Below, one piece after another: positions 1 to 57,552 of a stretch of DNA of 64,000 bases. Source of the stretch: Schmidtea polychroa (Eukaryota). Below the pieces are notes generated by a model. The model had not been told where the DNA came from. It was given only the letters and a program-made list of their open reading frames with translations, and made no database searches. The stretch spans positions 66,340,001-66,404,000 of the forward strand of contig CM097886.1 in NCBI GenBank assembly GCA_044892525.1, written 5' to 3'. Position 1 is the stretch's first letter, and every line of letters begins with the position of its first letter. A program made the position numbers and the translations under genes.

Positions 1-60
1 AGTCGATCAATTACACATGTATGCGTCAGAGAAGACAGAGATATATGCATAGTAACAGAT

Positions 61-747
61 ATGACACAAGACCACAAATTCTTCTGGGGAGAGGTCAAAC
101 CAAATACCCCTACTGTGGTATGCGCAGGAACCCAAGGGATAGTAGCATGTAAAGGAACAAGAACTGCACCAAGAAAAGACAAACCAAGGAGTATGGCAAT
201 TAAACAAGGTCCACTGATGGAGATAACAACCAAGAAGCCAAATAAATCAGTTAGTACAAAAACAACAACAGAGCAAAACCAAACTGAAGTAACAACAACG
301 GCAACAGGGATCAATGAAGTGATTAAGGATGAAAGACGAGAAGTGCATGTAACTATCAACCTCAACAAGAAAGGAGAAGAGGTAATTACAGTCAAAAACC
401 AAGAAGGAGAACCAATCATAAGGATATGCGTAATGGCTAAGACGGGAATAATCGACTGTACAACAACACCGATAGACAAAGGTGTAGACGTCAAAATAGA
501 GACAAGGAAACGAAAAGAGCGATATCAGGTATGTATCCTTAAGAAAGGAAGAGGAACCAGCGTATGTCAACCAATAACTCGACAAAAATCCCAATTAATA
601 AACATACCATGGATACCCCGAGATCGAGAAGGGGGAGAGAAACGAGAAAATCACAGTCACCTAACAGAGAAGGAGAAGGAACGACTACATCAAGCTTTTA
701 AGAAAATCAAAGCACCAGAAACGAATACCACAGGTAGTATAATGTAG
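61..747 (+). CDS. Hypothetical 228-aa cargo protein (beta-rich middle, basic patches)
   Basis: Open 228-codon ORF with the same A-rich codon style as its neighbours. AG lies 2 nt before the ATG. No recognisable domain. Confidence 0.55.
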   Translation: MTQDHKFFWGEVKPNTPTVVCAGTQGIVACKGTRTAPRKDKPRSMAIKQGPLMEITTKKPNKSVSTKTTTEQNQTEVTTTATGINEVIKDERREVHVTINLNKKGEEVITVKNQEGEPIIRICVMAKTGIIDCTTTPIDKGVDVKIETRKRKERYQVCILKKGRGTSVCQPITRQKSQLINIPWIPRDREGGEKRENHSHLTEKEKERLHQAFKKIKAPETNTTGSIM

Positions 748-962: not shown

Positions 963-2141
963 ATGACTAATCGAGAGAGACCGAATATCCGAAAGAAAAC
1001 GATCACAATGAGAGAGGGAGAGGACGATACGCCATCTAGAAAGAGAGTGAGAGATGCGGAAGTTAGCGAAACAAAACCAAGTGGTTTCGCGTATTATCGA
1101 AGGATGGGAAATGATTATAGTTTAGTACATGGAAATTTGAAGCAGGGGAGTAATGAGCAATTCAAATGTGAGAACCAGAGATACCTGTCATTTGAACACC
1201 AGACCATTTTCACCAAGGAACAGAGCCGAGCGCTAGCACTCAACGGATTTTTCTTCTCAGGAAAACCAGAAATACCCGATCAAGTAACGTGTCACTTCTG
1301 TAATGGGAAATTAGCAGAATGGAAAAAAGGAGAACACCCAAAGAAGGAACATCGTAAACGAATCCCAACTTGTCCATTCATAATGGGATTTGATGTACAC
1401 AACAAACCGGAAATAAAATACGAAGCCTTGGAGAAATTGAAAACCGAAGATGAAAAAGGAGGGAAAATGACCATCGCGATAACCAGAATCATTGATGAAT
1501 ATGTCCCAACTTGTGAAGGTGAATTTCTCACGCAAATAGCAGATAATAGAATGAGAACGTTCGGAGACGATACGAGAGGACCTGAACTAGCAATAAGAGG
1601 ATTCTATCTAACAGAAAAGCAAATACTCAAGTGTGAAAGATGCGAAAGCCAACAGAGATTACCGGAGGAAGGCATACCAGAAATTAGACATCAAGCATGG
1701 TGCCTATATCACAACGAACAAGAAACCGAATATCCAGAAGTGTTAGTAACAGAAGAAGAGGTTGACGAAGTTGTAGACAAACCCAACATGTGCAGAGCGT
1801 TGAAAGCAGCCGGAATAGGCACGACAAGAGCAAAGAAAATGGTTAACGAGAGACTACAGAAAAACGTACATATACCAACAACAACGTACGATATGATCAG
1901 AGCAATTACTCAATACAGAGAAAAACCTGAAACAAAAATAAAAGAAGAATCAATGGTCAAAGCAGCTATCTTACGAGATATCAAATGTACTATGTGTTGG
2001 GAGATGAGTGTAGAAGTTATTCATATGCCATGCGGACATTTGATCGCATGTGCCACGTGTAGTAGAAAAGTAAAGGAATGTCCTATGTGTAGACAGAGGA
2101 TTGCGCAGCGAATCAAAGGATTTCGCTACGCCGATCAATAA
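963..2141 (+). CDS. Inhibitor-of-apoptosis (IAP/BIRC-like) protein: BIR, degenerate BIR, UBA-like segment, C-terminal RING
   Basis: BIR1 has canonical C-x2-C-x16-H-x6-C (CHFC..H..C, with ALALNGFFF). BIR2 is degenerate (ELAIRGFY..CERC..H..C). RING is C3HC4 (CTMC..MPCGHLIACATC..CPMCR). ALKAAGIGTTRAKKMV resembles the IAP UBA domain. Intronless. Confidence 0.92.
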   Translation: MTNRERPNIRKKTITMREGEDDTPSRKRVRDAEVSETKPSGFAYYRRMGNDYSLVHGNLKQGSNEQFKCENQRYLSFEHQTIFTKEQSRALALNGFFFSGKPEIPDQVTCHFCNGKLAEWKKGEHPKKEHRKRIPTCPFIMGFDVHNKPEIKYEALEKLKTEDEKGGKMTIAITRIIDEYVPTCEGEFLTQIADNRMRTFGDDTRGPELAIRGFYLTEKQILKCERCESQQRLPEEGIPEIRHQAWCLYHNEQETEYPEVLVTEEEVDEVVDKPNMCRALKAAGIGTTRAKKMVNERLQKNVHIPTTTYDMIRAITQYREKPETKIKEESMVKAAILRDIKCTMCWEMSVEVIHMPCGHLIACATCSRKVKECPMCRQRIAQRIKGFRYADQ

Positions 2142-2223: not shown

Positions 2224-3822
2224 ATGAATAAAGAATCACAAACCTATGTGGAAACCGAGATGCAACAACTCGAACAGTACAAATCCATCATACAAGCCTA
2301 CGAAGCAGAAAGAGTAAAGAGAGAAATAGAAATGTACAAAACCATGTATGAGAAAAAGCAACAAGAGTTAGAAGTGGAGAAGGCGGAAGCACTAGCAACA
2401 AAAGAGAAGTGGATGAAACAGGTAGAGGAATTAACCGAGGATGTGAGAAATACCTCAACATACCAAGAATTGGAGGAAGAGCTCTCAAATTTGCGAACTC
2501 AGCGGATTATGGAGATAGTTGGGTTATGCGGAGAGATAATAATGCAAAAGGCACAAATTAGAGAAGCAAAGGAGCAATACGAAGAGGAACAGCGTAAAAC
2601 GGAACGAATATAACTACAAGCGCAACAATGGAAACGAAAATACGAAACACTCCAAACGAGGCAGAATGATAGCCACGAACATCAAATACGAAGCTACAAG
2701 GCAGAACTAGAAGAAGCAAAGGACAAATGCGCAATGATGAAAGAAAAATGGGAAAGATGCAAAAAGACCCTAAACGAAGTCAGAGGGCAGGGGAGGAGAA
2801 CACCGCACAAAGAACCCATCGTTAAAGATAACGTATTAGAGCGAATTAACACACAAATAAAAGCCCAAGCTCAGAAATGGAAGTATAAATATCTAGGAAG
2901 TCAAACTCAAGTGCTCTATTGGAAAATCAGTAGTAAGGAACTACTGAGATTACGAAAAGCAGACCAAGAATTTTACGAAACAAGGGCTACACAGCGAGAA
3001 GAAGAAGAAGTAGAGTGGAGAAAACGACATCAGAGATTGGAGAAAACCGAAAAGTGTCTCAAGCATCAAGTCCGAAAATGGAAAAAGAATTGGAAAGAAA
3101 CCAAAGAAGAATTAAGACAGCTGCCCATGAGACTGATGGAGAGAGACGACTTCAAAATGTGGGAAATGATAGAAAACCAAAAGGAGGAGATTAGCCGATT
3201 GAGTAGAGAACATAGAATCAAAACGCGGACCAGCGACGGTAGACAGAGAATCATAAAGAAACAGACCGGAGAGATAAGAAGGTATGAATACCAGGAAAAG
3301 AGATGGGAACAACAATTGACAGACCAAGATCGACAGATCCGACAATTACAAACAGAAGTGGAGGAAGCCAATCAAGAGATGAACGGATATAAAGGTATGT
3401 ACACCCAAAGGGATGTGAATTGGAAGCACCAGATTGAACTTAACGCGAAATGTAGAGAGGAGTGTGATAAGGCAATTCAACAAGCCAATCAGGAAACTGA
3501 AATAATAAAACGATGCTTCGAAGAAAATGAAGCAAATCTGAGGGCAGAAATCGAGAAACTAAAAGCGCTTGAAAGAACCCAATGATTGGAAGAGGAATTA
3601 GACGAAATGATAGAAAACGAAAGTAGATTAACGTTTTTGTTGGATGAAGAAATAAACATCTCAACGGAATTGCGGGAGGAAGTAGATCGGTTAAGGAGAC
3701 AACCACCAATATTATTAATGCCGCTCTACCCGTTCCCGTTGCAAGTGCCACAGCCTGCCGAAGTCACAACAGATGAAGGCTTCGAAGAAAATAACGAACC
3801 AAATAACGCAACGTGTATTTAG
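2224..3822 (+). pseudogene. Long coiled-coil cargo ORF interrupted by two in-frame stops (TAA 2611-2613, TGA 3583-3585)
   Basis: Track ORFs 2224-2613, 2734-3585 and 3586-3822 are all in one frame, and E/K/Q/R-rich heptad-like sequence continues across both stops. Confidence 0.7.
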
Positions 3823-3942: not shown

Positions 3943-4710
3943 ATGAATTATTTAAAAGAAAGAGAATCAACGAGTAACGAAAGAAAGTCAAATGACCAAC
4001 CTGAACAAAGCCAGAATACGATACCAATCAAACAAGAACCAATGAAATATGATAGTAATAAATGGAGAGTCAGCAAGAAGTTGTTCAAAACAGAAATTGC
4101 AAATAAAAATGTAGAGATTACGAGATTGAGACAGCATATTGTTCAATCAAGGCGATTAATAAACATTGTCAAGCAAGAAATTTTGAGGGAAATAAATGAA
4201 TCGAAACGAAAAGAGACGGAAAATAAAAACCTGAGACAGGAGATAGTGGAATTGAGAGCTCAGGCAGTAATCGAAGATTATTGGAAATCAGAAACAAGTA
4301 AGTTGAAGAAGATTGTAAATATCGATCAAGTTTATATCGAACAGTTAGAAGCACAATACGCTTATGCAAAAACGAGAATGCGAGAAAGTAAACGAGTCGA
4401 GAAGAGAAATGCAAAACTCAAGGAAGAGATCAAGGAACAAAGAGAGGAAACAGAAAAACAATGGAAGTTGAAAGAAAATTATCGGAGAATTTTATATCAA
4501 AAGCGACGAAGCATGCAAACACTGCAGACGACAATGACCATCAAACAAAGAAAATGGAAAAGTAAAGAGAGGTAATTACAAGAAATACCAGAATTAAAGA
4601 AACAGTTGGTGGCAACACAACTCGAAGTAATAAGAATGAACGAGTTGAGTAAAAGACGAGCACCTGAACCTCCCATAAAATTAAGGGATGAGGTCGGTGA
4701 CTCCCAATAA
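3943..4710 (+). pseudogene. Second coiled-coil cargo ORF with one in-frame TAA (4573-4575)
   Basis: ATG 3943 follows ATTTTTGTAG. The frame continues past 4575 (LQEIPELKKQLVATQLEV..) to TAA 4708-4710. Confidence 0.6.
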
Positions 4711-4786
4711 ATGAGACAAACTAACCGTGTAAATAAATTGTAAATAAAGCCAAGTAATTATTATTAAAGTATATGTATATGTAAAG

Positions 4787-5844
4787 ATGAGAAGCCTAAT
4801 TGTGGTGATGATTATAATGGCATTGCCAAGAACCCTGCAAGCAGAAGAATCAATGATCAGATGCCAAAAAGAATACCCATACCGAAGAGAAGATAGCACA
4901 TGCAGTAGCTTTAAATCAATCTGCGAAAAACCCAATGAGGAATGCGAACAAATCAAGTTGCAATGTTCGCAATGTCCACCAACCACTGAAAGTTCAACGG
5001 AAGTGCAAATAGCTCAGACAATAAAAACAATCTTGGAGCAAGAAATGAAAGTTATCAGAACCCAGATAGCAGCATTGGCTAAACAATGTCAAAGCCAGAA
5101 ATCAAAGAGAGAATCCCAAACAGATCCAGCCGCAACCCAAATGAGAATGATGATAAAAATTAAAAACGAAATGACAAAAACCTTGAAAGAAATGACAAAA
5201 GAAATCCTCACTACCATAAATAAAAATCCGATGAACTCCGAAAAGATAGAGGAAATAAAACAACAATTAATGACAGCCGCCAATGGACGTGCAAGTAATT
5301 GCAGAATGGTAGTGAAATCGCTAGAGGAAATGAAAGGAAAAAAAAACCCAGCATTAAAAATGAGGTGACGAAAACCTTAAAAGAAATGACAAGAGAAATC
5401 CTAACTATCATAAATAAAAACCCAATGAACTCCGAGAAGATGATTAAAACCTTAGAGGAAATAAAGAAAGTTGTCACCTCGGAAGAAAACAAATTCAACA
5501 AACCCGAAAAATCAGAAGTTGCGGATACAACCCAATTGGGAGAAATGATGAACAAACCCAAAGTATTAGAACCCAGAGAGTCCGAACCCCTCACAATATT
5601 GATCCTATTAGCGGCAAGCCTAATGATAAACATCACCATACTGAGTCTAATTGCACTCAAACCCATTCCCAGTAAAGAAAGAAACAGAACCCTGAAACTA
5701 AAAGAACAATCACGAAGTATTCGTATCCCAATGGAAGAACAGCTAGTCCAAACAACAAACCAACCAAGATACTTCAAATCTTCTCCAAACATTGAAACCA
5801 GAGCCGTCATCGAGACGAGATCCCGAACAACAGAATTCTACTAA
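4787..5844 (+). CDS. Secreted or type-I membrane protein encoded in two frames joined by a -1 shift at the A9 run 5338-5346
   Basis: N-terminal hydrophobic signal peptide, Cys cluster, KSKR dibasic site, duplicated helical repeat, then in the -1 frame a TM-like segment LTILILLAASLMINITILSLIAL and a short tail. Confidence 0.6.
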
Positions 5845-5917
5845 TATGACATTACGACAGTATAAACATTTTGTGACATTATAAAACATTATCAAACGAT
5901 TGCGAGTCTAAGACTAA

Positions 5918-5998
5918 GCAGGTGAGCTCTATTGCTAAAACTACTCCCCATTGTATTTTCTCTTCGGGTTCTAGACGGCCGATAGAAGGTCTTACGTC
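5918..5998 (-). other. Conserved family block (TGACGTAAG.CCTTCTATCGGC..ATGGGGAGTAGT..GCTCACCTGC), copy 1
   Basis: The reverse complement matches 57553-57637 in four co-linear blocks and 12733-12795 in two blocks. Confidence 0.8.
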
Positions 5999-6860
5999 AT
6001 TGATCATTTTCTATTTTTACTTTTCTATCTCATTCGGTTATGGTCTTCATTTCTAGTTGTTTTCTATTGTTTCCTTTCAAAATTTTGTGCAGGGATGCGC
6101 CCTCATTTTTCTATTAATAAAGGTTGCTAGGTATTTCTTTTGATATTTATGAATATTTAAACTATCTCGCAAAAAAAATTTGAGCATGGATCGGCCCTTA
6201 TTTTCCAGCTAATAATTATTGTTCTACACTTCCTACAATATCTAAATTATCCTTTGAAAAATTTGAGCAGGGATTGGCCCTTATTTCCAAGTTAATCCGC
6301 GCTTCCCATAATATTTAAATTGTACTTCAAAAAAATTTGAGCAGGGATCTGCCTGTATTCTCAGTCCTAACCTATGTTTGGCCAAAGTACTTCCAGCGAT
6401 AGGACCCGTGAGGAAGCCCCCACATTTCGGCCCAATCCAGCTGCGTGATTGAAGAACCTCATGTCCACCGGCTGAGCTCCCGAAGGCACCTCATGCCATG
6501 ACATGAAGTTCCTCAACTCCACGTTACTATCGTTCACAATCAACAAATAATATAATTGAACTCAATAAAAACTATTATTTCAAACTTGAAACTAAATGAA
6601 ATTAAACAATAATGAAAAAAAAACTAAACTAAATTGAATATAAAATTTATTTAACTTTAAACATTACCTAAAATTTCATATTAAAATAAAATTACCAGTC
6701 CAATCCACAAGGGCATAAAATCGAAAATTGAGAGCATATGTTCGTTACCTGACAAACGATTTGTTGTGTAAAACTGAAAACTAATTTAACAAGTTGAACA
6801 ACTGAAATTTCAATCCGTATTTATACTGATTGAATTGTACGCCTACGCATTCTCTGCTAC

Positions 6861-6881
6861 TATATCCAATTAGAATGCGAG
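6861..6881 (-). promoter_or_regulatory. Promoter-like motif CTCGCA..AATTGGATATA of module A
   Basis: Same motif as 54488-54516 (+) and 30302-30327 (+). About 0.7 kb inside the shared terminus. Confidence 0.4.
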
Positions 6882-7558
6882 GCAATTCTGGTTAATTTTT
6901 GCATGCATGCATGCATGTGTGCAATTATTGTTTTTTTTAATTTAATTAATTTAGTTAATCAAAATTCTAATTTTTATTAACTTTTAAGATTTATTTTTAT
7001 AAATTCTATAATCAAAATAGTTTTTTGCTAATTTTAATTTAGTTTTACAAGTTTTGTAATTTAAATAAGTTCAGTTAATTTTACTTTAGTTTCATTAATT
7101 TAAACAATTTGGTTTTATAAGTTGTATAATTTAAATAATTTTGTTGGTTTTATTTTTAGTTTTAGTTTTATAAATTTTATGGTTTATCTAATTTTACTAC
7201 TTTCTTTCTACATTTTTTATTATTTCTCCAGTTTACTAGATAATTTATTTTAAATTTTAAATTTATTTATTTAGAAATTTCCCATATTATTAATTAATTC
7301 ATTACCCATTATTTTATTTATTATTATTTTAATTTTTAGTTGTTAGATATTCCGAATGCGATGTTTCTCCTAATTGTGTTAGTGATTGCGACCTTTATTT
7401 TCGTTCCTTTATTTTATCACCCGGGTCTTATTTATCATCAATGTGTTATGTACTTTAATTTGTATTGATTGGTGTTTTGATTTAACTTGGTGCGATTTTT
7501 ATGTTATGTATTTTTGATTCATTAAAACAAGCTCTCGATTCTCGGTTCTAGCCCAACA

Positions 7559-9113
7559 TAACCATCGACCACCAATTAATAAAATAATCCGAACTATTTA
7601 ACATATATCCTTAATTTAGGTTACCTTCAAAATTATAGTTGAAAAATTTGTCATCAAAGACCCCCAATAAACCATATCGTCATCAACTACCACCTAAATA
7701 TGCTAAATTGGCTTATCAGAATATATATTTAACTTATTTTATATTCAAAAATATAAATTGTAAATTTTCATGAATGACCCCCTCAACTTCATATAGTCAT
7801 TAATCACTACCTAAATATATTAAATTGGCTTATCAGAATATATATTCAACTTATTTTATATTTAAAAATGTAAATTGAAAATTTTTATGAATGACCCCCT
7901 TACAAACCATATAATCATCAACTACCACCTAAATATACTAAATTAGCTTATCTTAATATATATTTAACTTATATTATATTTAAAACTATAAATTGTACAT
8001 TTTCATAAATGACCCCCCTCAGACCATATAGTCATTAAGGATTACCCAAAAGTACTAATTTAATTTGTTTTCAGATATGTTCAACTTATATTACCTTTAA
8101 AAATATAACTTGTATTTTTATTTAACCGACCCCCCTCAAATCATGTAGCCATTAACTATTACGTAGGTATACTGAATTATATTATATTCATAGACAGTTA
8201 AATTATATTTCATTTAAAAATATAAATTCATAAATTTTTGTAAATTCCCCCTCCCCCCATATGTGGTAATCTTATACAAATATAAATTTATATTNNNNNN
8301 NNNNNNNNNNNNNNNNNNNNNNNNNNNNNNNNNNNNNNNNNNNNNNNNNNNNNNNNNNNNNNNNNNNNNNNNNNNNNNNNNNNNNNNNNNNNNNNNNNNN
8401 NNNNNNNNNNNNNNNNNNNNNNNNNNNNNNNNNNNNNNNNNNNNNNNNNNNNNNNNNNNNNNTATCACTCTCATTATTATTATTACTATTATCATTATTA
8501 TTATTATTATATTATTAAAATAATTATCTTTATTTCATGAAAATAAAATTATAAAACAAATTATTGATTTTGGAATTCCCCTATCTCTAAATTTAGTTTC
8601 AATGGCCCTATCTTCCAATAAAATTACGGAAAATCACTAATATCTATTTTTAGTAACATCCCCCCTTGAAACGACATCAACTATTATTAATTTAAATTAT
8701 ATCCATATATGTATATGTGTGTGGGTGTATATGTATATATATGTGGATGTGTGTATGTATATATAGATTTAGAAAATAACAAATACCATAATCTTCCCCC
8801 TCAAGACCCCTTTAAAGTAATAAAAATAGAATAATTTATAAAAATTATGGACAAAATTATGGACAAAATTATGTTCAAACTAAATCAAAAGACAAAACTC
8901 AATTGTAAACTAAATTTATTAATTCCAATCACCAAATTTATTTACATCATTGTCTCTTTGAATCATATTCATACCAAAAAGTCCTTCGAGCTCAGTTGAT
9001 GGACCATCCCGATGAAATACATTTCCTGGGGTTGGAAAATGGAAAACTTATATTAAAATATCTTTCAGAATTTCTTTTAGATTTCCACAATTAAATAATT
9101 CCAAATTATTTCT
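7559..9113 (+). repeat. Left arm of a ~1.5 kb inverted repeat, with five ~117-bp tandem subunits and an (ATT)n tract (gap)
   Basis: Near-identical reverse complement of 14876-16387. GACCCCC recurs at 7659, 7776, 7893, 8011 and 8128. Confidence 0.9.
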
Positions 9114-10420
9114 ATATAAACTACTATAAACTATAACCTATGTCAATTATAAAATATAAATCATGAATAGTGCTATATAAATAGTGAATGTATCCAATCC
9201 TTAAATACTTGTATATAAATTTATAAATTGTAAATAGTCATGTATAAATTATAAATGTATCGGGGTTATAAAATATAAGTTATAAATAATTATATAAAAA
9301 AAATTTTTTTTGATTATAAAATATAAAGTATAGATGGTTGCACCTAACTTATACATGTATCTTGATGCTCGAAAATAGAACCCATAATTAGCTATAGATA
9401 AATTCTGTCTACGAAATAGTAATTCTAAATAATTATATAAAATTTTTGATTACAAAATATAAAGTATAAATGATTGAATATAAATTATACATATATCTTG
9501 ATTTTATAAAAATAAACTATATATAAATTACAAAATTATATATAAATTTTGATCATAAAATATAAAGTATAAAATGGTTATATATAGAGGTTGAGTATAA
9601 AATATAAATAGTTATATACATATGTAACTTGTAAATATAGAACTAAATCATAACTGGCTATATATCAATTTTGATCGAAAACTATGAAGTATAAACAGCT
9701 ATATATAAATTGAGTATAGATCTTAATTAGTAAAATGCGAATTAGAGATAACCATTTGTAAAGTATAGAAACATAATTCATGAACCATACCTAAAGTATA
9801 AACTAGAATTCATATTAACTACCCAGGTTCCGAACGTAACCTGCCCAATTTGTAAAGTCTAATATCAGTCACCTCCAGAGATATGATCCTATGCCAAGGA
9901 TATGAAATATGAATTTTCGTTAAATTATAAATTCTAAATGCATACAAATTAAACTAAGAAATATAATTCGTATTAGTATTATCATTATTGTTATTATTAT
10001 TACTGTCAGTATTATCACTATTATTACCCTTNNNNNNNNNNNNNNNNNNNNNNNNNNNNNNNNNNNNNNNNNNNNNNNNNNNNNNNNNNNNNNNNNNNNN
10101 NNNNNNNNNNNNNNNNNNNNNNNNNNNNNNNNNNNNNNNNNNNNNNNNNNNNNNNNNNNNNNNNNNNNNNNNNNNNNNNNNNNNNNNNNNNNNNNNNNNN
10201 NNNNNNNNNNNNNNNNNNNNNNNNNNNNNNNNNNNNNNNNNNNNNNNNNNNNNNNNNNNNNNNNNAAAATCCAAATTTGATTGAATAATCGATTTAGGAT
10301 TTCCCCTCACAACTAAATTTAGAACCTACCCTTTTGCCCCAATAAGAATGATCATAATTCCTAAAGTCTATTTTTAGTAACACCCCCCCCTCGGAGAAAA
10401 TGCTAGGACTATTAATTAAA
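9114..10420 (+). repeat. Older diverged copy of the same repeat family (AT-rich tandem units, ATT tract, core)
   Basis: TTTTGATyAyAAAATATAAAGTATA-like units at 9.3-9.7 kb. The 10290-10420 segment resembles 8570-8700. Confidence 0.5.
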
Positions 10421-11417
10421 TAAGAACATGGGTGGATACATCTATATAGATATGTGTGTAAACGTGGGTAACTATACGTATATAATAAGTTAATTTAACC
10501 CAAGCTTGTCAGTGACGGATACATCTTAGTTAACTTAGCGGCCCCAGAAATTAAAAGCCATGTAAAGCCTACATTGTTGACTTAAACTAATTCATCGAGA
10601 ACACTAGGAATGCATTGAGACAGCCGATACCAACTATTGAACTCCACGGAATCAACTGCATGAATTATCGATAAATGACAAAAGTACATCTTACTTAAAA
10701 TTAAAAGCGTTATCAAAAGGGAATACTAAATTAAATTATTCAACAACATTTCTAACATAATTAGATACAAATCAAACTAAAGATACCAACACAGAGTCAT
10801 AAAAAATTCCTTAAAGGCTTTGAACAATCGGCCATTCCGTCCGAGTGAAAGATTTCCACCAAATATATCTAAAATCGAAAAGTTATTATTGATAAATAAA
10901 GTACTTACAAGTTAATCAAAGGGGATTACACCACTCATGACGAGCACAACCGAGGGATAAGTAAGTAAAATGAGGAGCTAGGCTCGTCAATGATACTTAT
11001 CGCCCCAGTGTACCCGAATTTAGTGGTAAATTACTAACAGGATCCGATTTCCTAAATTCGAAGAAAAAGTAAAGTATTAAATTTTGAATTACCAGCTAGT
11101 GGTAAACAAGATTTTGAAAATTTAAATGATTGAATTAAACAAAGTTAATTAAATTTAGGATATATTTAGTTAAAGTATGAGATTTACAAAAACTTTACTC
11201 AGGACTATTGAATTTTTTTTAAAAATAATTTCGGAAATCCAGGTTGTAATTGCAGTCGTTTTTTATTACTTCATTAAATTTCTTTTTAACTAAGATACAA
11301 CTATCAAAAATTTTAACTGTGAACGCAAGATTTTAATTATGAACTCCGTTGTCCGAGTCCCTTAAAGACTCATATCAGTCTGTGCCAAATGACCTAAATT
11401 AGATTTGCATTATAGAA

Positions 11418-11783
11418 ATGTCTCACTCCGGCGACTCAAACGGTGATGAAGCCTACAATCAAATGATCACGCGGCTCCGGACCCGGTACATCTGGTATCG
11501 GATACACGATTGGAACCGGGGGTTGGACCTCGATAATTACGGTCCGGTCATCCGAAGTGGCCCAGAGCCCGATGCCCCGGCGTGGGTGAAAATAGAGCCC
11601 ACCAACAACGTGTTATGGGAAGCCCGCGATCGAGCGGCCGACGAAGTAGTAGAGGCCCAGAAGCGGCTGAGGAGATTCGAGCTCCAGCTCAAAGCCGAAA
11701 TAATGGGAGTAACTCCTGAAGAGCTGGAGGAGACAGATGCCCCTCCACGAAAACGGGGAAGGCCCCGTAAGAACCCGGCCTAA
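11418..11783 (+). CDS. 121-aa protein with a C-terminal AT-hook (RKRGRPRK)
   Basis: GC-rich ORF in an AT-rich background, TTATAG 2 nt before the ATG, canonical RGRP AT-hook core flanked by basic residues. Confidence 0.65.
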   Translation: MSHSGDSNGDEAYNQMITRLRTRYIWYRIHDWNRGLDLDNYGPVIRSGPEPDAPAWVKIEPTNNVLWEARDRAADEVVEAQKRLRRFELQLKAEIMGVTPEELEETDAPPRKRGRPRKNPA

Positions 11784-12104
11784 CTTATCGATAGTAACAA
11801 TTCGGGCGAACTATTTAATCTAATTAGTGATACTGTGTGGTGTTTGACTTTTTGTTTTTGTAACAACTATGACGAACTGTAGCAATTTTTATTATTAAAA
11901 CTTTTACATCATAGTTGGTCGTGCGTATTCATAATATAATAAATCATCTTTGTCATTATATAGAAGTCTTATTGCGTATGGGGTGTCCCCAGGGACGGGA
12001 TGACCCACCCCCTTACTCTTCAGTTACTACTTTTATGAAAATAATCGAATTACCTTTATGCACATGGAAACGAGCGACGAAATTTTCATTATTGTTTTTC
12101 TTCA

Positions 12105-12578
12105 GTGTACAAGCTACTTGAAAATCTACGAAAAGACCGTGAACAGGCCCAGCAACAATCCGAGGACCTTCGAAGTCGAGTCGAGAAGCTCAAAATCAAG
12201 TGCCGAGAACTCGAAGGCACTTGGTTCAGTCCGGCTGAGATGAAGAAACGGACAACACACATCTCACAACTCCAGATCCAGGCGGGGCAAGATCAACTCG
12301 AAATCCGAGCGTTGAAGCTACAAGTACGCTCGCTCGAGAGCAAACTGAATGAAAAATTCATCCAGGACGCCCTCCAAGAGCAGATTCGTCCCCTTCCGGT
12401 GGAGCTAGCCAAGATATACCCACCTGCCCAGGCAAGCAAGCCGAAACGTAAGCGGCTAGGGCGGAATACCCGGGAAAAATTGAAGAGGGTCTGGCTGGCC
12501 GAGCAAGAAAAATCGAAAGAGCCTGCAGTCACTTCACGATCCCGAGGAACGTTTGAGAGTGTAATCCCTCCTGAGTAA
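12105..12578 (+). CDS. Coiled-coil/basic protein of an unrecognised family (LEGTWFSPAEMK); 5' end probably spliced
   Basis: Motif shared with 56491-57218. A strong acceptor TTTTTCTTCAG ends at 12105. Confidence 0.7.
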   Translation: MYKLLENLRKDREQAQQQSEDLRSRVEKLKIKCRELEGTWFSPAEMKKRTTHISQLQIQAGQDQLEIRALKLQVRSLESKLNEKFIQDALQEQIRPLPVELAKIYPPAQASKPKRKRLGRNTREKLKRVWLAEQEKSKEPAVTSRSRGTFESVIPPE

Positions 12579-12704
12579 AACATACCTTGTAATATAGTAA
12601 TGATTAAATAAATGATTCTTGTTGTCTAATGCATATGTGATCAAACTTTGTGATGGTCCAGAACCAGACGGTCGGCAGAAAGGCGTTTGGGGAAACAATC
12701 TCGA

Positions 12705-13325
12705 TAAGGGACCGAAATAAATCGGACACGTGCCTTCTATCGGCGTCCGTGAACCCATGGAGTACTCGACAATTATAGTGCCTTGAGGCGCTCACTTTTT
12801 GCGAGTACTCAACCCCTTGGTACAGTACCAACGTTGATTGCTCAACGGGTACCAAGAGGAAAACAATGTTGTATTCTGGGTTACGCTGGTAACAGCACCT
12901 AAACATTCAACCACCTGTAACCCACCAATATTGACATATCCATGTACTAAGTTCAAGTGTTTGGGAAAACAATTTGCTCGTTCTTGAATGCATATCACTT
13001 TATATCAGCTTTTACTCTCTCCTTTATATCTATTCTCGGGTTCTTTCACCAATTAAATTTTCAAATCCCGGCTGAGCCCCCAAATTTGTATGGTGGGTTA
13101 CTGATGATCAAATATTTTGCTCTTTAGTGCTGTTACCAGCGTAACCCAAGATACAACATTGTTTACCGCTTGATACCCGTTGAATGATCAACGTTGGTTC
13201 TGTATCAAGAGGGTGAGTGCTCGCAAAAAGTGAGCGCACTACTTGCACTGTAATTGTCGAGCACTCTACTGGGTTCACGGACTATCGTTTGAAGATATAT
13301 GTCCGATTTACGCAGGTCCCTTATT
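12705..13325. repeat. Imperfect inverted repeat, ~220-bp arms around a ~160-bp spacer
   Basis: Perfect complementary blocks 12877-12898/13127-13148 (22 bp) and 12788-12805/13220-13237 (18 bp), with co-linear partial matches out to ~12705/13325. Confidence 0.9.
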
Positions 13326-14126
13326 ATAATTACTTTCTCAACTATGCCTATACAAACTTTCTATCCTCAAACGATCATAAGTCATCAGGAATCATACATT
13401 AATCTATTAAAACCTGTTCATACAATACCACATCTAAAATGTTTGAATATAAATTAAGTGAAACATAGCCATAGTTTATTAAACATACCTTAAGAAAATT
13501 TTGAGGATAATGAATTTAATTAGAACACAATCAAAAAAAAAACAACTTATATATTGGTGAACATACAAATAAGGGTCAGAAATTTCATCAACCACAACAA
13601 CCAAATGTAATAACTTTACAAGAACCATGATTGTTTATGACCGCGTATTATTTGACTAAGCGTATTTCGCGGTGACTATGATTGTCCTAGTTGACCTACA
13701 ATGACACTCACCTTTGTTGAGCCCGGGTAGTTATAGAGATATGGTTAGATCAACAATCAAAATCTCACAATACATTTTTGTTAATATTATATTTTTAATT
13801 CAAGTTAAATAAATTCAAAATACATCAATAACTGTTACAAAACAATTCCCTATATAATTTTAAGAGATACTTCTAGAAAATTCAAATTGACTCAAACTTT
13901 ATTTTTTAAAAATTTGTTTTCTATTAATAATAGATTTTTTCTAGAATTTTAAGAAAATTTTAATTCAAAATTTATAATAATATTAAATTAATTTTACAAT
14001 ACTCGTTGCTTACATTTTAAACAAAACTTATACGTCAGTTTGAAGTATTTTAAACTTGTTTTAACTAATTATTTTTTAACAAACCATTTTTTTTTATTAT
14101 ATATTATTAATTAGTGATATTTTGCA

Positions 14127-14793
14127 ATGAAAATTTTATCAGTTTTTTTTTTCTAATCAATGTTCACTATGTAATGTCAGCTACAGTTAATGAAAATAAT
14201 TGCGAAGGTATTTGGCACTTATTTTTATTATATTTAAAAATTGTTCAGTTTGTGTGAAGTTTGTGAGACGCCTGAAAGATAGTCTAGATGGAGATGAAAG
14301 TACAAATATCGAAAATATTGAAAATAAATTCAAAGAGATGAGCAAAACAAGTAAAGGAAAAGAATAAAGTCTTGTAAGGTATTATAACTGATTAATATAA
14401 AATTGTAATTTATTTTTAGTGTTATTATATTGGAGGATTGGTAACATCTACTACATATATTGTAAAACATTTGTCTCAGCCTTTGAGTTGGGTTATGCCC
14501 GCTGAAAAAGTCTGAAAAACTAAAAGCAATGGATTCACAAATTTGTGAATTAAAATATGGTATGTTCAGTTAAGATTTTAAATATTAATTCAACTATTTT
14601 TCAGACAAACCTATTGATCTTACTGGTATTAATCTAAACAAAGCTCGCGTTAAAGATCTCAACAAATATTAGAAAGCTGGGGTGAAGAATGTAAAGGTTG
14701 TACAGAAAAAACTGATTTTATCCGATTAATAAATGAAAAATGCCCATTTATGATCCTAAAGCAGCCAAGCAAAGAAATAAAGCCGATTTGTAG
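14127..14793 (+). pseudogene. MANF: MANF/CDNF (ARMET) homolog, 4 exons (14127-14207, 14249-14373, 14420-14559, 14605-14793), with an in-frame TAA and four apparent frameshifts
   Basis: [45 protein letters not shown] and C-terminal ADL. GT-AG introns of 41, 46 and 45 bp. TAA at 14365-14367. Confidence 0.85.
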
Positions 14794-14875
14794 TTGGAGT
14801 TTTTTTTTCAGTTTTTTTTCAGGATGTTGTAATTAAATAAAATATTAAAATTCTTTTTGATCGAATATATTTGTG

Positions 14876-15546
14876 AGAAATAATTTGGAATTATTTAATT
14901 GTGGAAATCTAAAAGAAATTCTGAAAGATATTTTAATATAAGTTTTCCATTTTCCAACCCCAGGAAATGTATTTCATCGGGATGGTCCATCAACTGAGCT
15001 CGAAGGACTTTTTGGTATGAATATGATTCAAAGAGACAATGATGTAAATAAATTTGGTGATTGGAATTAATAAATTTAGTTTACAATTGAGTTTTGTCTT
15101 TTGATTTAGTTTGAACATAATTTTGTCCATAATTTTGTCCATAATTTTTATAAATTATTCTATTTTTATTACTTTAAAGGGGTCTTGAGGGGGAAGATTA
15201 TGGTATTTGTTATTTTCTAAATCTATATATACATACACACATCCACATATATATACATATACACCCACACACATATACATATATGGATATAATTTAAATT
15301 AATAATAGTTGATGTCGTTTCAAGGGGGGGATGTTACTAAAAATAGATATTAGTGATTTTCCGTAATTTTATTGGAAGATAGGGCCATTGAAACTAAATT
15401 TAGAGATAGGGGAATCCCAAAATCAATAATTTGTTTTATAATTTTATTTTCATGAAATAAAGATAATTATTTTAATAATATAATAATAATAATAATGATA
15501 ATAGTAATAATAATAATGAGAGTGATAATGTTACTGGTAACAATAC

Positions 15547-15620
<74 letters not shown>

Positions 15621-16387
15621 TTAATAACGATAATAATAATAAATATAAATTTATATTTGTATAAGATTACCACATATGGGGGGGGGGGGGGGAGGGGTCA
15701 TTTACGAAAATTTATGAATTTATATTTTTAAATGAAATATAATTTAACTGTCTATGAATATAATATAATTCAGTATACCTACGTAATAGTTAATGGCTAC
15801 ATGATTTGAGGGGGGTCGGTTAAATAAAAATACAAGTTATATTTTTAAAGGTAATATAAGTTGAACATATCTGAAAACAAATTAAATTAGTACTTTTGGG
15901 TAATCCTTAATGACTATATGGTCTGAGGGGGGTCATTTATGAAAATGTACAATTTATAGTTTTAAATATAATATAAGTTAAATATATATTAAGATAAGCT
16001 AATTTAGTATATTTAGGTGGTAGTTGATGACTATATGGTTTGTAGGGGGGTCATTCATAAAAATTTTCAATTTACATTTTTAAATATAAAATAAGTTGAA
16101 TATATATTCTGATAAGCCAATTTAATATATTTTGGTAGTGATTAATGACTATATGAAGTTGAGGGGGGTCATTCATGAAAATTTACAATTTATATTTTTG
16201 AATATAAAATAAGTTAAATATATATTCTGATAAGCCAATTTAGCATATTTAGGTGGTAGTTGATGACGATATGGTTTATTGGGGGTCTTTGATGACAAAT
16301 TTTCAACTATAATTTTGAAGGTAACCTAAATTAAGGATATGTGTTAAATAGTCCGGATTATTGTATTAATTGGTGGTCGATGGTTAT
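14876..16387 (-). repeat. Right arm of the ~1.5 kb inverted repeat, including an (AAT)n microsatellite ~15465-15640
   Basis: Reverse complement of 7558-9113. Related GGGGGTCAT subunits continue slightly beyond 16387. Confidence 0.9.
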
Positions 16388-17599
16388 ATGAATTAAAAGG
16401 GGGTCATGAAATTAAGAAATTATGCTTTCAAAGGAACTACAATTTAACCCTATATAAATGCGATATAATCTAATATTCTCAAGCAATCATTGACGATTTA
16501 AGTTATAATTTACAATGTAGGTAATTTATACTGCACAATTTATACTTGAAGAAGGCTTTTAATTTATACTCGATATATAGATTAAAGTTGCGATTTATCA
16601 TTTATAAGATCATTGTAAATTTTCATAAATACTCGCGTTCCTAATCCACATTTGAGGGACAAATTGGGTGGGTACGTAGTACTATTAATTCCGAAGTTAT
16701 AATTGGCAATTTGATACATTATAATTTAAGCAGAAAGAGGATATACGGTTCCGGTTCTTGGTCGTAATATAAATTTATCCTTAATGATTTATATAGCTTA
16801 GGTTTCTGGCTGTAGAAGAAATTTCTAAATAAATTCCTTTCATGATTGGCGATGTTAGGTATTTATACCTAATATAGAATTAGGTTTGACTCATTTTTCA
16901 ATGCTATCTTTCATTTTGTAGCCGATAAATATTTATTGATAACGATTTACAGTATATGGGACGATTTTTAATGCCAAATTAACACCATTTGATGATTGAT
17001 AATATGAGGGGTTAATTTTCTACACCCAGACTTTACATTTCAAGATTGACTTGGGCTTTAGTGATCTATATTTTAACCACGAGGTAAAGCTATATGACGG
17101 TTATTGAGGATTTTATAATTAATTAGGCTTATTCCGCATGTCGAACTTCTTTATGATATTATTATGATTAGTTACGAGAAAATCATTATGCTGTTACTAA
17201 AATTTTATCTACAAATGACATTCGACAAGCGTATAAGTAAAGTTGTTTTTAACTGACTACATTACTCAAATTGCGATTGTTGTGTTTAATTTAGGTCTGA
17301 GATCTACTCGATTAAACTTCTAGTGTGACTTAGTGTACCGAATTTTTAATGGTGATTTTAATTGTGTAATGCATTCATAGTCTGGAAGAATGCTTGCTTA
17401 CACGGCCCCACTGTGACCGCTACGACAAGCCCTACTGTAGTGTTGAGTCGAAACATCGCTGTCGACCGATAAATAATTATATGGAGCCATAGCGGAGGGG
17501 TTTTATCGACACAACTCCATGGTAGAACCATGAAGTGGCCGACCTCCGATGACCGAACAAAAAAATATATATAAAGGATATTGCATGTCTGCATGTGAA

Positions 17600-18549
17600 A
17601 TGATGATTTGAGGTGAATTTTATAAACGATCGAATGTAGGACTGATCAGAGACGCAGATGTATCAATACGCCGCTGATCCTTCTTACATTAGATAAAAAT
17701 AATAAGCAGGATTTGATCTAGACATAATTAATATTACCAATAACAATCAAAGTCAAATTATAATCAATAATATCATTAAACTTTAAAAATTCAAATAACA
17801 ATACTCACTATCAATGTGACCTTCAAGTTTTTCGCAACAAAAATTTGGCATAAAAAAGTGATTACTTGTGACTAGAATGCGTCGGTATATATACCTATTT
17901 TGTACACGTGTATGTATTGATGCATTAAAACAAACTCGAATTCTTTTTATTCCAGAATTTTCTATTTCGTGATTTTGATATTTTTAATGGCAATTTTAGT
18001 GCTATAATTTTTGTTTTTATTTTTAAATTTTTATTCTTTAATTATTTTTTCATTAATTTTACGTCCATGATGGATTTGGAACGGTTCCAGAACATTCTAT
18101 TTTATTTTTAATACAATTTTCATTTTAACTGCTGTTTTATAAATTTCTTTTTAAGATTTTTTATTTTTAATACTAATTTATTTATTTTCTCTAACTTTTG
18201 TTGTTCTAGATGGCCGTTGTGATGGTCGTCGCCATTTTATGGAATGTTCTGGGTTTTTCTGGAATCTTTTTACTGTTTTTATCGTCTTTTAAGTTATTCG
18301 AGTTTGCTTTTTGTAGTTCTATGTTTATTTGGTTATTTTTGAGTTAGGTTTTGCATAACTTCTTGCTTTTGTATAATTTTATTTACTTTGTGGGTTTATT
18401 ATTTTTGTTGTTTTCTCCTTTAATTACCATTGTTTATTTGGTGTAGGTTTTAATATTTAACTATACTTGGTGCTTTTTTACTTGCTGTGTACTTACACAT
18501 TTCAGTCACAATTAGTATTTTGGGTCTAGAAATCAGTTCTAGCCCAACA
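17600..18549 (-). mobile_element. Module D: LTR-like end of the same family
   Basis: GTTCTAGCCCAACA at 18536-18549 is identical to 7545-7558. T-rich tract, then TATATATACCTATTTT (17886-17901) ~0.65 kb inside, as in module A. Confidence 0.55.
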
Positions 18550-28619: not shown

Positions 28620-28830
28620 CAGTGGTTCTTAAATTTTTTTCTGTATTGCGACCCCAAATTTTAAATTCCGTCTTTTGGCTACCCATAACCTATATATTTT
28701 TGAAAAATAATCGTTTTTTCAAAAAAAAGGTTAGATAGATTTTGGATAAATTTTAGCGTGTTGTTTTAAATTTTGGAATTTTCGCGACCCCATGAAAAAA
28801 TCTAACGACCACTAGTTTAAGTATTATTAG
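28620..28830. mobile_element. Degenerate hAT-type MITE
   Basis: Starts CAGTGGTTCTTAAA, with subterminal GCGACCCC repeats near both ends. Right terminus decayed. Confidence 0.5.
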
Positions 28831-28844
28831 ACATAAAAAGGTTT

Positions 28845-29900
28845 AAACTATGGACAGACCACAAACCAATAACGTTTATGTTGAAGACCAAGAAGCCAAT
28901 CACACCTCACTTTCAAACATGAATCATCCAATTAAGTGTTCTGAACATTGAAATGGAATAATGTAAAGGTGAAACGCATTCTAATGCAGATGCGCTATCG
29001 AGAACTGAATGTGAATTGTGCATACAATGTCAAACGATTCATGAGAAACCAAAAACAAAGATCTAGCACTCATGTGTCAAGAAGATGGAAAACTGTGGCA
29101 GCAAGATTCTAAAGAACTACAAAGTAAGAAAAGAGATATTCTAATTTTGAAAGAAACAAAATTTTTAGAAAGTAATGACATTATTCATTCAAGCAAAGAT
29201 AAAATATGGATTCCAAACGAAAGAAAAGAAGAATTTGTATTGTCCACTCATAAAAATTTGTGTCATGCTGGGGTAAAAAAGTTCATGAATATATTTCTAG
29301 GAAATTTGACATCAGAAACAGACAGAAATTTATTAAAGAAGTAGTCGGATCGTGCAAAATTTCTCAAAAAAGAAAGGCTTTGACTACACGAACAGCAGTT
29401 AACCATTTAAACCAACAGAATTTTATTTATTAAAATCAATTTTCATTGACTTTTCTGGCCCAATGAAAACTGCCAGTAGAAAGAAGTATATTTTGGTAAT
29501 TATAGACCAATCTAGTATATAAATTTCTTGATATGCAGTTTCTGAGCAAAATGAAAAGACAGTTGCAACAATTTTTAACGAAAAATGGATTTTGAAATTT
29601 GGTGTGCCAAGGAGTATTCATTGTGATACAGGGAAAGCATTTAAGTCAACTTTATTAAATGCATTTGCAGAGAAACATGGGATTTATTTAGTATATTCAA
29701 GTCAGTATCATCATTAAGCTAATGATAAAATTGAACTCCAATTTAGAATTATTAAAGATGCTATCCAAATTTCCTTAAATGAAAGAACGGACAAAGACTG
29801 GGTCAAAATACTTCCTTAAATTTGAATTTATTTTGAATGGGACAATTCAGAAAACTACTCATTTGAGTCCTGCACAAATTGTTTTTGGGGTAGGAATGGA
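28845..29900 (+). mobile_element. Ty3/gypsy pol remnant (RNase H end plus integrase), with stops and frameshifts
   Basis: HSNADALSR, THKNLCHAGVKK (HHCC region), IDFSGP, WILKFGVPRSIHCDTGKAF, HLSPAQIVFG. Confidence 0.88.
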
Positions 29901-29999
29901 AATTAGAAGGATTTCCACTACTAACATCGAAAAATAACTTAAAGATATCAATTATAGCCAAAAAACTGGAAAATTAAGTTAAAATGGAGAAATCCATCA

Positions 30000-30330
30000 T
30001 GGACGCCAAGTGATTTAACAAAGTTAACAAAAATGAACATCCAATAATTAAAATAACAAAAAGTAAAAAGAAATAACCTAAGAATTAAAAGAAAATGATA
30101 ATTGTGCACAAAAATCGACGAAAATAACAGAAAATAGTCTAAAGTGCTGATGTCAACCAGAGCGGAAATTTAATCAAAAATTAATAAAATATAAAAATCA
30201 GAATATAAACTTAATTTTTATTCACGAGAAAACGCCATCCAAAACTAAGTAGAATAAAAATAATTTAAATTTGTTTTACTGAATCCATGCACACACACAT
30301 ACTCGCAAACCAAAATTAGGATATATATAT
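30000..30330 (+). mobile_element. Module E: A-rich tract ending in the family promoter-like motif
   Basis: CTCGCAAACCAAAATTAGGATATATA (30302-30327) versus CTCGCATAAAAACAAAATTAGGTATATAA (54488-54516). Confidence 0.45.
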
Positions 30331-31476
30331 ATATATATATATATACAGATGCATTTTTGTCACAATTTAATCCAATCAAGCTAGTCTAAGCTATTTTGAA
30401 AACCAAGAGCCGAAAAATTCTCTTTTAAACTATTGTTTATGCCATTTGAATAGTGAGTGGATGTTGTTTTGTTGTTATCATATTTATATAATATTTTGGT
30501 TAATAGATTTGTTAGACGGGTTTTAGCTTTTCAATCATTTTCTATAGCGGAATCACTCTAACTCTAGATGACCAAGCTTATTGTGAGTTTATCGACCCCA
30601 CAACCAGCTACTACCACAAGGAAATAAGCTAAAAATATTACCGGGAGTGATGGTGGTACTGCGCTGTGTATCGGAACAGTTTTACTACTCTGTATATCAG
30701 GTACTCTGCGGCTACCATGGTAAATAATGGATATCATTGACGTTGAAACAGGGGACTTTAACTTCATACGTGGCTCTGAGGTCACCATATAACATGAAGA
30801 ATTCGCTGTACTGAGTTATGTAGACCGGTGAGACGAATAGTTTTATTAATTAATTAATTATCTATAGTGCAAGTTGACCACACATTGAAACTCAATCTAC
30901 AATCTATGAATAGGACACTAAGAGTTCGTTCCCCAAACGTCCAGTGGGCTGAGGGAAATGAACGGATAAACTCCATCTACGTAAAATCATACAAAAACAA
31001 AATCACAATTAACTACGTTGAAATTCTTAAAACCAACAAAATGAATTAACTAAAATTAAAGGAGATATCTGTCCAAATATTCTATCCTACCACATGCTTA
31101 ACCGTCCAGGAGCTAGGGTTTACAGATTTTGATAAGAAGGCCATTTACGATGATGGATAAATAAACTGATAAACTGCATATCATTAATTATATGGGTCGA
31201 ACTCATAAAACTATATACTTGACCTTTCAGTCGATAATTATTTTACAATAAATGTACAGAAATATATTATTGAAAAATTAAGTTGTAAGAACAAGAAAAA
31301 CCTTGATTATAATACCATAACGTTTAGTGGCCAAAAATTATCTTGCATTTTAATTAATATTGATTAATAAAAATTCTCCTGATTATATTGATATAATTAC
31401 AAAAGAAAAATTATTATTCTAATTTTTTAGTGAAGCATCAATTCATTTTGAGTTGTGTAATAGAAATAAATATAAA

Positions 31477-41655: not shown

Positions 41656-41656
<1 letters not shown>

Positions 41657-54482: not shown

Positions 54483-54517
54483 ATTGGCTCGCATAAAAAC
54501 AAAATTAGGTATATAAG
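54483..54517 (+). promoter_or_regulatory. Inverted CCAAT box and TATA box (TATATAAG) of module C
   Basis: ATTGG at 54483-54487 and TATATAAG at 54510-54517. Motif conserved in modules A, D and E. Confidence 0.45.
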
Positions 54518-56490: not shown

Positions 56491-57218
56491 ATGTCCAAGG
56501 TTCCAATCACCACAGTCATACGCCCATGTTTCGCTTGCGCGGACAAAAACCAGTTGATAAAGACTCTTCAGACTCAAAATGGCCTCCTGAAAAAGAAATC
56601 GGACTATTTAGAAGGGACGTATTTTTCTCCAGCCCAAATGAAGGAGGTAAGAACAAGGCTCACCCGAGTGAAGAAGTGTCGGGATGATGTATTGGAGGAG
56701 AACCGCGCTTTACGTACCTTAATCAAAGAGCAGTCCGAAGCGCTGCACAAGGTGTCTGTCCAAGCTTCAGTCACCAGAAAAATAGTAGATATCCCACTCG
56801 CAGAAGAGGACAATCTATTCCCGTCCGATCACTTCTCGGGCATCTCGTTGACAAAATCATTTAATCCGGCCAACTTAAGCCATGCGAGTCTCCCTCAGCC
56901 GACGATCCCATCCGAAGTTATCTGTACCGGCACAAGTCGCGCGGTCCCAAGGATAGTAGATTTAACAATCCCGATCACTCTCCCGGATGTAAAGAAAGCC
57001 AAGAAACGCCGGCAGCCATCTAGGGCCGAGCGTACTAAAAGGAGAAGGCCCTCCAAGCCGAAAGGGAAGCGGCTCTGATAGCCTCTGTTCAACTACCAGC
57101 TTCAATACCTTCAGCGGAACCCGCCCCGCAGTCTATTCCTATTTTCCGGGTAGTCCCGCCCGCCGATTTTTTCGATCTCGATGAGATCTTTGCTGGAACT
57201 TCTCCGAATACATTATAA
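56491..57218 (+). CDS. Coiled-coil/basic protein of the unrecognised family (LEGTYFSPAQMK), with a 1-nt frameshift near 57037-57040
   Basis: ATG 56491 follows TTGTAG. Adding one A continues the frame as KEKALQAERE..DFFDLDEIF to TAA 57216-57218 and restores alignment with 12105-12578. Confidence 0.7.
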
Positions 57219-57552
57219 TTTATACCCATGTTCCTTCTCGAAGTTGTATGACTCTGAAAAATGTATTTTGTGGTGGTAATCCATTAATATATTTTTCTGT
57301 TGTGACTTGTCAAATTAAATAATTTTGAATGTTTGAGCTATGATGAATGGTCGAATAGGAAATTGAATAATGAGTGATGGAATCAATATGTGGAAGAGAT
57401 ATGATAAAGCTGAATTTAGGAAGGATAGGAAAAATGGTAATGTGGTAAAATTTGCTGTTGAATGCTGAATACAGTCAAACTAGTGAGTTGAGTGTCGTGT
57501 TGGAGACTGATTGCAAATTGGGATGATACACGGAATCTTAGAATGATGTGTA

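Follow-up and report, generated by a model that had tools for sequence, protein, structure and literature searches.

Do three identical 13-bp sequences, embedded in modules of DNA that otherwise hardly align, mark the ends of one kind of mobile element? The window, i.e., the whole 64-kb stretch of Schmidtea polychroa DNA that was analyzed, contains three such modules (A, C, and D), together with two others (B and E) that share some of their features. The explanation that we consider best, and probably correct, is that large Ty3/gypsy (Burro/GLT-like) LTR elements of three lineages, by now diverged, have their outer ends at A, C, and D, and that B and E are further relatives. The features on which this reading is based are listed in Table 1.

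Table 1. Positions in the 64-kb window of the termini, signals, reading frames, and foldback components discussed in the text.
Feature	Position	Strand	Remarks
Open-ended A-rich ORF of the A array	1..747	+	no family
IAP-type ORF of the A array	963..2141	+	BIR + C-terminal RING; intronless, stop-free, 392 aa; toward A terminus
K/E/Q-rich ORF	2224..3585	+	one in-frame stop at 2611-2613
K/E-rich ORF	3943..4575	+	no family
Last ORF of the A array	4787..5844	+	hydrophobic N-terminus, Cys cluster, helices, C-terminal transmembrane stretch
Block 1, A copy	5917..6000	-	ATGACGTAA, CCTTCTATCGGC; one donor-like word per strand
Block 2 (TGGGGGYTTCCTCAC), A copy	6408..6422	-	2 matches, chance mean 0.06
AATAAA of A	6646..6651	-	215 nt past motif, then T-rich DNA; aligns with AATAAA of C
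CTCGCA..AATTGGATATA motif of A	6861..6881	-	not a consensus TATAWAWR box
A-skewed terminal tract of A	6882..7545	-	T-rich on ORF strand; no alignment with C or D
Copy A terminus, 13-bp att-like end	7546..7558	-	exact match; junction with truncated left arm of foldback F
Foldback DNA element F	7559..16447		arms 7559-9113 and 14876 to at least 16447; A inserted in left arm
121-aa ORF, interior of F	11418..11783	+	AT-hook-like end (Pfam E 0.18, below cut-off)
Homologue of C small ORF, interior of F	12096..12578	+	begins behind splice acceptor
Diverged block 1 copy, interior of F	12704..12927	+	repeated inverted at 13091-13324 (79%)
Promoter-like region of D	17866..17952	-	TATATATA at 17886-17893; alignable to B
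Copy D terminus	18537..18549	-	exact match; 5 bp from left arm of second foldback (18555-20750)
Decayed gypsy-like RNase H-integrase fragments	28821..29934	+	upstream of B, same strand; rve E 3.2e-5 and RT_RNaseH E 0.014, neither reaching cut-off
Module B	30252..30365	+	same motif and A-rich tract; no 13-mer
Related terminus E (TGTTGGGTA)	53390..53398	+	with A-skewed tract
Copy C terminus	54149..54161	+	exact match
CTCGCA motif and one-directional TATATAAG box of C	54488..54517	+	box at 54510-54517
Block 2, C copy	55075..55089	+	
Small ORF of C	56491..57078	+	195 aa; on motif strand
Block 1, C copy	57552..57638	+	
Possible right half of E	58503..58999	+	TATAAATG, several AATAAA; ends TACCCAACA (inverse of E start)

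Exactly three exact copies of TGTTGGGCTAGAA are present in the 64-kb window, compared with a chance mean of 0.01, and none of 100 shuffles yielded three; the copies and places reported in a first-pass annotation were thus borne out. Allowing two mismatches added only a single match in the window, where 1.17 would be expected by chance. A, C, and D all begin TGTTGGG, which fits TGTTRNR, the consensus given for the terminal attachment site (att, or SIR) of the Metaviridae (Benachenhou et al. 2013, PMC3601003). According to the same source, integrase specificity lies in the last 8–15 bp of an end, and the U3 of Metaviridae LTRs shows hardly any conservation besides the TATA box. The perfect identity of 13 bp found here is longer than the ~7 bp typical of Metaviridae, but it still lies inside that 8–15 bp integrase footprint (PMC3601003). 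The 13 bp may thus be an attachment site that would stay constant, because it is bound by one type of integrase, while the body of the LTR drifts and keeps nothing in its interior but promoter, poly(A)-like, and splice-donor-like words. The att consensus and a barely conserved U3 together account for the whole pattern that had originally been noticed. Neither the 13-mer nor its complement was found in the literature searched.

The terminus of A is the exact junction of an insertion, at 7558/7559, the break falling at the terminal dinucleotide. On the other side of this junction lies F, a foldback DNA element of 8.9 kb whose 1.5-kb arms are built on tandem units of 117–118 bp and whose left arm is cut off by A, so that the left end of F, and with it any target site duplication, is out of view. 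Seven unit anchors can be placed in the right arm of F, but the left arm lacks a counterpart of the outermost one (at 16399), the end of A being found there instead. The 60 nt beyond the right arm match are still unit-like, with a score of 40.5 that was reached by none of 3000 random stretches, whereas the corresponding 60 nt of the left side do not rise above background (score 18.0, reached by 1185/3000); A was therefore inserted into the left arm of F. The converse, a later insertion of the foldback at a TA site at the edge of A, was rejected on the same grounds, as the right arm continues. The reading of these modules as element ends of the LTR type thus stands, both on the att consensus and on this junction, and the sharp homology boundary at the 13-mer that the first-pass annotation had named as its own test is found at one copy, A. 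D lies 5 bp off the arm of a neighboring foldback, a hint of an insertion boundary that is suggestive only. That second foldback has ~300-bp arms made of 59-bp units around a GT-rich tandem array of the 7/21-bp type, and a short hairpin (20742–20782) follows its right arm.

The outer arms of F are identical at 726 of 746 columns (97%), and the insertion of A that interrupts them was therefore probably recent, although arm homogenization or assembly collapse near N gaps could inflate the arm identity. The family had been called old, a description that is not supported for copy A, which both interrupts this foldback and borders a stop-free ORF for an IAP of 392 amino acids. The interior of F is a composite. 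At 14200–14833 (+), it includes ARMET/MANF exons with short introns and frame breaks (Pfam ARMET_N and ARMET_C, both above cut-off), which on sequence grounds appear to be a captured piece of a host gene. It also has a small ORF homologous to one in C, adjoining a diverged copy of block 1 and the 121-aa AT-hook-like ORF. Because F carries host exons as well, capture is the simplest reading of how the small ORF and block 1 got there. Its 1.5-kb arms of tandem units, together with the captured ARMET exons, small ORFs, and block 1, give F a likeness to Pack-MULE and foldback capture elements, but no transposase was found in F.

Inward of the terminus, each module is skewed toward A (over 300 nt, +0.35 in A, +0.48 in D, and +0.62 in C), and windows matching or exceeding these values numbered 129, 43, and 1 of 2490, respectively. 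A TATA-like motif follows 692 nt (A), 655 nt (D), and 361 nt (C) from the terminus. The annotated combination of an inward A-rich tract and a motif 0.36–0.7 kb in is thus real, and the further motif copy at 30302–30327, in B, was seen directly, as was the D variant at 17886–17901. CTCGCA..AATTRGRTATA matches A (6861–6881) and C (54488–54513), and two matches were reached in 0 of 100 shuffles, a control that is flattering because the pattern was derived from those same two sites. Calling the motif TATA-like is right only in part: it is present in A, C, D, and B, but that of A is not TATAWAWR on either strand, those of D and B are palindromic, and only in C is it one-directional. Similarly, the sequence between terminus and motif had been described as not alignable, which holds beyond composition for A–D, A–C, and D–C (7, 46, and 35 of 60 local shuffles, respectively, reached the observed score) but not for D–B, which can be aligned in the tract and around the motif alike (0/60). 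B has no 13-mer, nor any TG-starting match with five or fewer mismatches, in 29501–30312.

A and C are collinear, both running from terminus through tract, motif, AATAAA, and block 2 to block 1. The LTR plan described for the Metaviridae is TATA, then AATAAA, then GT/T-rich DNA (PMC3601003), and this order is seen in C; A has it without a consensus TATA. Overall, the modules are like Metaviridae LTRs in their TGTTRNR end, a weakly kept TATA, AATAAA, and a poorly conserved body (PMC3601003). No A(A/T)TAAA lies within 700 nt of the B motif, and the first in D is 532 nt away. From AATAAA to block 2, A and C show a weak link (nhmmer E 0.0023, with high bias), and their copies of block 1 are identical at 71% over 87 nt. 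Block 1 lies 1559–1642 nt from the terminus in A and 3404–3490 nt in C, so that the 1.6 and 3.4 kb given in the first-pass annotation are confirmed as distances, though LTRs of such lengths are putative. It holds one donor-like word per strand in both A and C (in A, GAC/GTAAG facing inward and CAG/GTGAGC outward), and the A copy also has ATGACGTAA, which we take to be a CRE-like site. A structured RNA in block 1 was rejected (z −0.85 in C and +1.19 in A), as was either block as a primer binding site (PBS), there being no conserved CA end in front. Between block 2 and block 1 of A, at 6174–6359, there are 3–4 diverged copies of a ~83-bp unit that is enhancer-like by position only.

The ends of E (53386–53398 and 58991–59003) form a perfect 13-bp inverted repeat containing TGTTGGGTA. 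They thus include a 9-bp pair of the SIR type, but the flanks are inverted and there is no direct target site duplication (TSD); the pair is one of six such inverted-repeat loci in 24001–64000, a count made without a shuffle control. For the right half of E, there is no alignment above chance with A, B, C, D, or the left part of E (60–77 of 100 shuffles reached the score). E is possibly an older LTR into which C nested.

Several hallmarks of a complete element were sought within the window. For A, C, and D, no second LTR, credible 4–6 bp direct TSD, PBS, or polypurine tract (PPT) was found there, and A runs off the left edge. Searching after CA for a TSD with each outer flank gave isolated matches that had no terminal likeness (e.g., C at 55800 and D at 12887), and candidate ends of C at 57876, 58999, and 59346 were rejected as likely due to chance. 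None of the CA+TGG sites considered as PBS candidates is conserved between copies, and no tRNA gene was found in the window. No inner end of A, C, or D matches YNYAACA, the candidates for a complementary SIR at the opposite LTR end have 2–4 mismatches and none has a direct TSD, and no two of the three 13-mers in the window face inward as a pair. No reverse transcriptase, integrase, or gag is linked to any 13-mer copy; the RNase H-integrase fragments adjoin only B, which is without a 13-mer. With E ≤1, an Rfam scan of the whole window gave five matches, none of which came near the gathering score and none of which was a ribozyme, and there is therefore no evidence for a Penelope-type pLTR.

The DNA inward of block 1 in A (1–5844) is a one-way array of A-rich ORFs on the + strand, pointing toward the terminus. 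IAP proteins are among the homology matches of the IAP-type ORF, and its domains are clear (BIR, E 9.5e-15; zf-C3HC4_3, E 1.7e-11). The next ORF (2224–3585) belongs to no family and is probably a coiled coil. The last is in two frames, split near 5300–5370 around an internal duplication (5159–5247/5353–5441); its transmembrane stretch has a KD19 value of 2.61, but the structure model is of low confidence (pLDDT 56.5) and too poor for a fold search. A profile search found no other copies of the long ORFs of A in the window. At four-fold sites, the long ORFs have 54% A and 12% T, which is like the gypsy integrase pieces (53/24) and unlike host exons (39/36). An AG ends 0–3 nt before the first in-frame ATG in all six ORFs with a visible start, compared with 154 of 822 background ATGs; this count leaves out the open-ended ORF, two continuation frames, and the exon at 12096, which lies behind an acceptor but has no ATG. 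Beyond block 1 of C, at 57950–58320 (−), an A-rich decayed frame lies opposite the motif strand, where A has its ORF array.

It was originally thought that the family keeps only its cis-signals, but C holds an ORF common to other elements, and D and B share alignable promoter DNA. The small ORF of C, which is predicted to fold into two long helices with a break at a GT(W/Y)FSP turn and an Arg/Lys-rich tail, is 33% identical over 72 amino acids to its counterpart in F (E 2e-7). It belongs to no Pfam family above cut-off, there were no fold matches at E ≤1e-3 in PDB and BFVD, and its Atlas look-alikes had scores of 0.80–0.82, which is chance level. Within the window, its profile matched only C and F, plus a weak match near 61.3 kb (E 0.035). 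Among 1.84 billion proteins, four relatives were found at E ≤1e-3, and a profile search gave four among 7998 scored candidates, two of them new; none of the total of six relatives outside the window has a descriptive name.

Judged by their sequences, the modules look as though they work like gypsy LTR ends. The TATA-type motif would then be a promoter firing inward, and the ORFs may be expressed as spliced subgenomic RNAs, as the AG acceptors at 6/6 ORFs would suggest. Both strands would be transcribed: the IAP, coiled-coil, and membrane protein array would come from one and the small basic ORF from the other.

Which end of the LTR the terminus represents is more finely balanced. We lean slightly toward TG as the start of U3, the array then being an antisense accessory region behind the 5′ LTR, and give somewhat less than an even chance to CA as the end of U5. 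In its full form, the latter reading places the terminus at the end (..CA) of U5 in an LTR that is either solo or 3′, and it makes the IAP array a sense 3′ accessory region that ends in a membrane ORF in the env position, and the TATA motif an antisense promoter driving the small basic ORF; as a whole, this is possible but we do not favor it. In its favor, the coding strand is A-rich in the long ORFs and in the spacers between them, as it is in integrase, the last ORF with its hydrophobic N-terminus and transmembrane stretch sits where env would, and block 1 has kept a CAG/GTGAGC donor on the ORF strand in both A and C. U5 is also described as beginning with GT-rich DNA (PMC3601003), and planarian constitutive and stem-cell promoters as T-rich upstream (PMC10558129), which is opposite to what the tract would be if the end were U3. 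However, the stretch from the last ORF to block 1 yielded neither a TG start nor a PPT, and the TATA box of C points inward only, with AATAAA following the motif in both A and C. Furthermore, B follows the gypsy RNase H-integrase fragments on the motif strand, and in the E pair, if it is one LTR, the A-rich tract adjoins the TG end while TATA and then AATAAA precede the CA end. The box of C, the AATAAA, and the arrangements of B and E all speak for TG as the U3 start.

An altogether different class of element would be a large DNA element with TG-starting ends, Ginger-like or Polinton/virus-like, carrying the IAP and cargo ORFs. The small ORF and block 1 in F would then be a family property rather than captured DNA, and F, an inverted-repeat element, does have both in common with C; the absence of a retroelement enzyme linked to a 13-mer copy and the perfect 13-bp inverted repeat at the ends of E would also fit a Ginger-like or Polinton/virus-like origin. 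We nevertheless judge it quite unlikely. The arms of F share nothing with the 13-mer ends, the ARMET/MANF exons indicate that F captures foreign DNA, and neither a transposase, polB, or capsid gene beside A, C, and D nor inverted 13-mer termini around an integrase or transposase gene, as in Ginger-like elements, were found; in addition, the inward order of TATA, AATAAA, and T-rich DNA is that of an LTR (PMC3601003). The flanks outside 7558, 18549, 53390, and 54149 end in the self-complementary dinucleotides TA, TA, CG, and AT, and the flanks of E, if joined with an overlap of 2 bp, would restore a palindrome of 6 bp, which might point to a tyrosine recombinase or to some other integration at short palindromes that leaves no TSD. 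Four cases spotted post hoc, without a shuffle control, may of course be chance; the pre-insertion site of A, as read from the other arm of F, does not form a longer palindrome, no recombinase ORF was found, and this type of integration is very improbable. Still less credence is given to unrelated decayed repeats with a chance word in common, or to an artefact of an assembly that has three N gaps and near-perfect duplications at 37877–48608. Most of the module bodies are indeed unalignable, but the absence of three copies in 100 shuffles, the collinear blocks of A and C, and the exact junction in A argue otherwise, and for A and C the idea is already contradicted.

The surrounding DNA is a mixture of host and mobile sequences. 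Exons of a host GRWD1/Rrb1-like WD40 gene lie at 21746–22823 (−), a long host-like exon with no Pfam family at 26597–28300 (+), and exons that by eye resemble a GRB2/drk-type SH3-SH2-SH3 gene at 32176–32540 and 52246–52440 (+), with a very long, element-filled intron. The near-perfect duplications comprise 37877–38724/45565–46412 (99.9%) and 43372–45568/46412–48608 (100%), each copy with a BED-finger-like frame, and they are either recent or an assembly artefact. A DDE_1 (pogo/Tigger-like) remnant with short inverted ends occupies 34182–35180, and ten copies of a 23-bp unit (96% matches) lie at 36358–36616. By eye, there is also a hAT-like remnant after a TA run at 62563–63331 and a possible further TG-starting LTR fragment at 31477–31650. 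The GC content of 1-kb windows ranges from 20 to 46%.

LTRs that cannot be aligned except for a conserved TG end and TATA follow the textbook pattern, and much of what is described here is thus expected biology from a family that has likely already been published; what is new is the terminus of A as an exact insertion junction in a foldback arm. The 13-mer provides a practical handle of 13 bp for collecting the ends of a giant family that is hard to align. Of more biological interest is the DNA behind the ends, with its anti-cell-death (IAP) gene and small unnamed proteins, and both the probably recent IAP-bearing copy and the small-protein family common to LTR ends and a foldback would be testable handles on how the elements are expressed and regulated.

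Complex retroviruses have spliced and antisense accessory genes, HTLV-1 HBZ and foamy virus bel among them. The modules would parallel these in having a small basic ORF on one strand and acceptor-led ORFs on the other, donor-like words on both, and a CRE-like site, but this is an analogy only, with no match in sequence or fold. A bolder, and on balance unlikely, reading extends it to a clade of giant retroelements built like complex retroviruses, in which a bidirectional LTR and donors on both strands would feed the acceptor-led array (IAP, coiled-coil, and membrane protein) and opposite-strand regulators embedded in the LTR (an AT-hook and a basic two-helix protein), whose trans-acting targets would be the A-tract and block 1. 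Lineages that share one integrase end could therefore cross-mobilize, and the regulator module would have moved into foldback DNA transposons.

The closest known systems are planarian. The giant gypsy-like retrotransposons known as Burro carry accessory ORFs as well as motifs of the BIR and Smc types (PMC6431247), and Burro1 is reported to have a RING+BIR region that protects planarian stem cells (PMC13465017, citing Lee et al. 2026). In appearance, A is like a portion of a Burro-type element, with Burro compared by description only: both have an element-borne BIR+RING gene, coiled-coil-type and accessory ORFs, and multi-kb terminal regions in an AT-rich animal genome. However, the IAP here has an intronless ORF to itself, one of an array of short ORFs that are each led by an acceptor, whereas Burro1/GYPSM1, from Schmidtea mediterranea and other Dugesiidae/Geoplanidae, is >30 kb with a 4,873-aa gag-env-pol polyprotein (PMC6431247, PMC13465017); that polyprotein and the MATH, BCL2, and ankyrin motifs of Burro are absent from the window by the same comparison of descriptions rather than sequences. 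The literature searched gave no description of Burro or GLT LTR ends, which Grohme 2018 and Lee 2026 may already contain, or of GLT structure or class. A likeness of a GLT probe to the ORF at 11418 was too weak to claim. The GLT2 probe of S. mediterranea (Li et al. 2021, PMC8532177) was read by eye, not by a computed alignment, over the first 400 of its 485 printed letters, and its reverse strand encodes a peptide that resembles the small ORFs of F and C at ~19 of 58 ungapped positions, i.e., about one-third identity, with a KCRxxExTWxxP core. Also by eye, this peptide lies behind a splice acceptor of the same phase as that of the small ORF in F, and GLT2 is among the transposons that are de-repressed tissue-specifically upon loss of SMEDWI-2 (PMC8532177).
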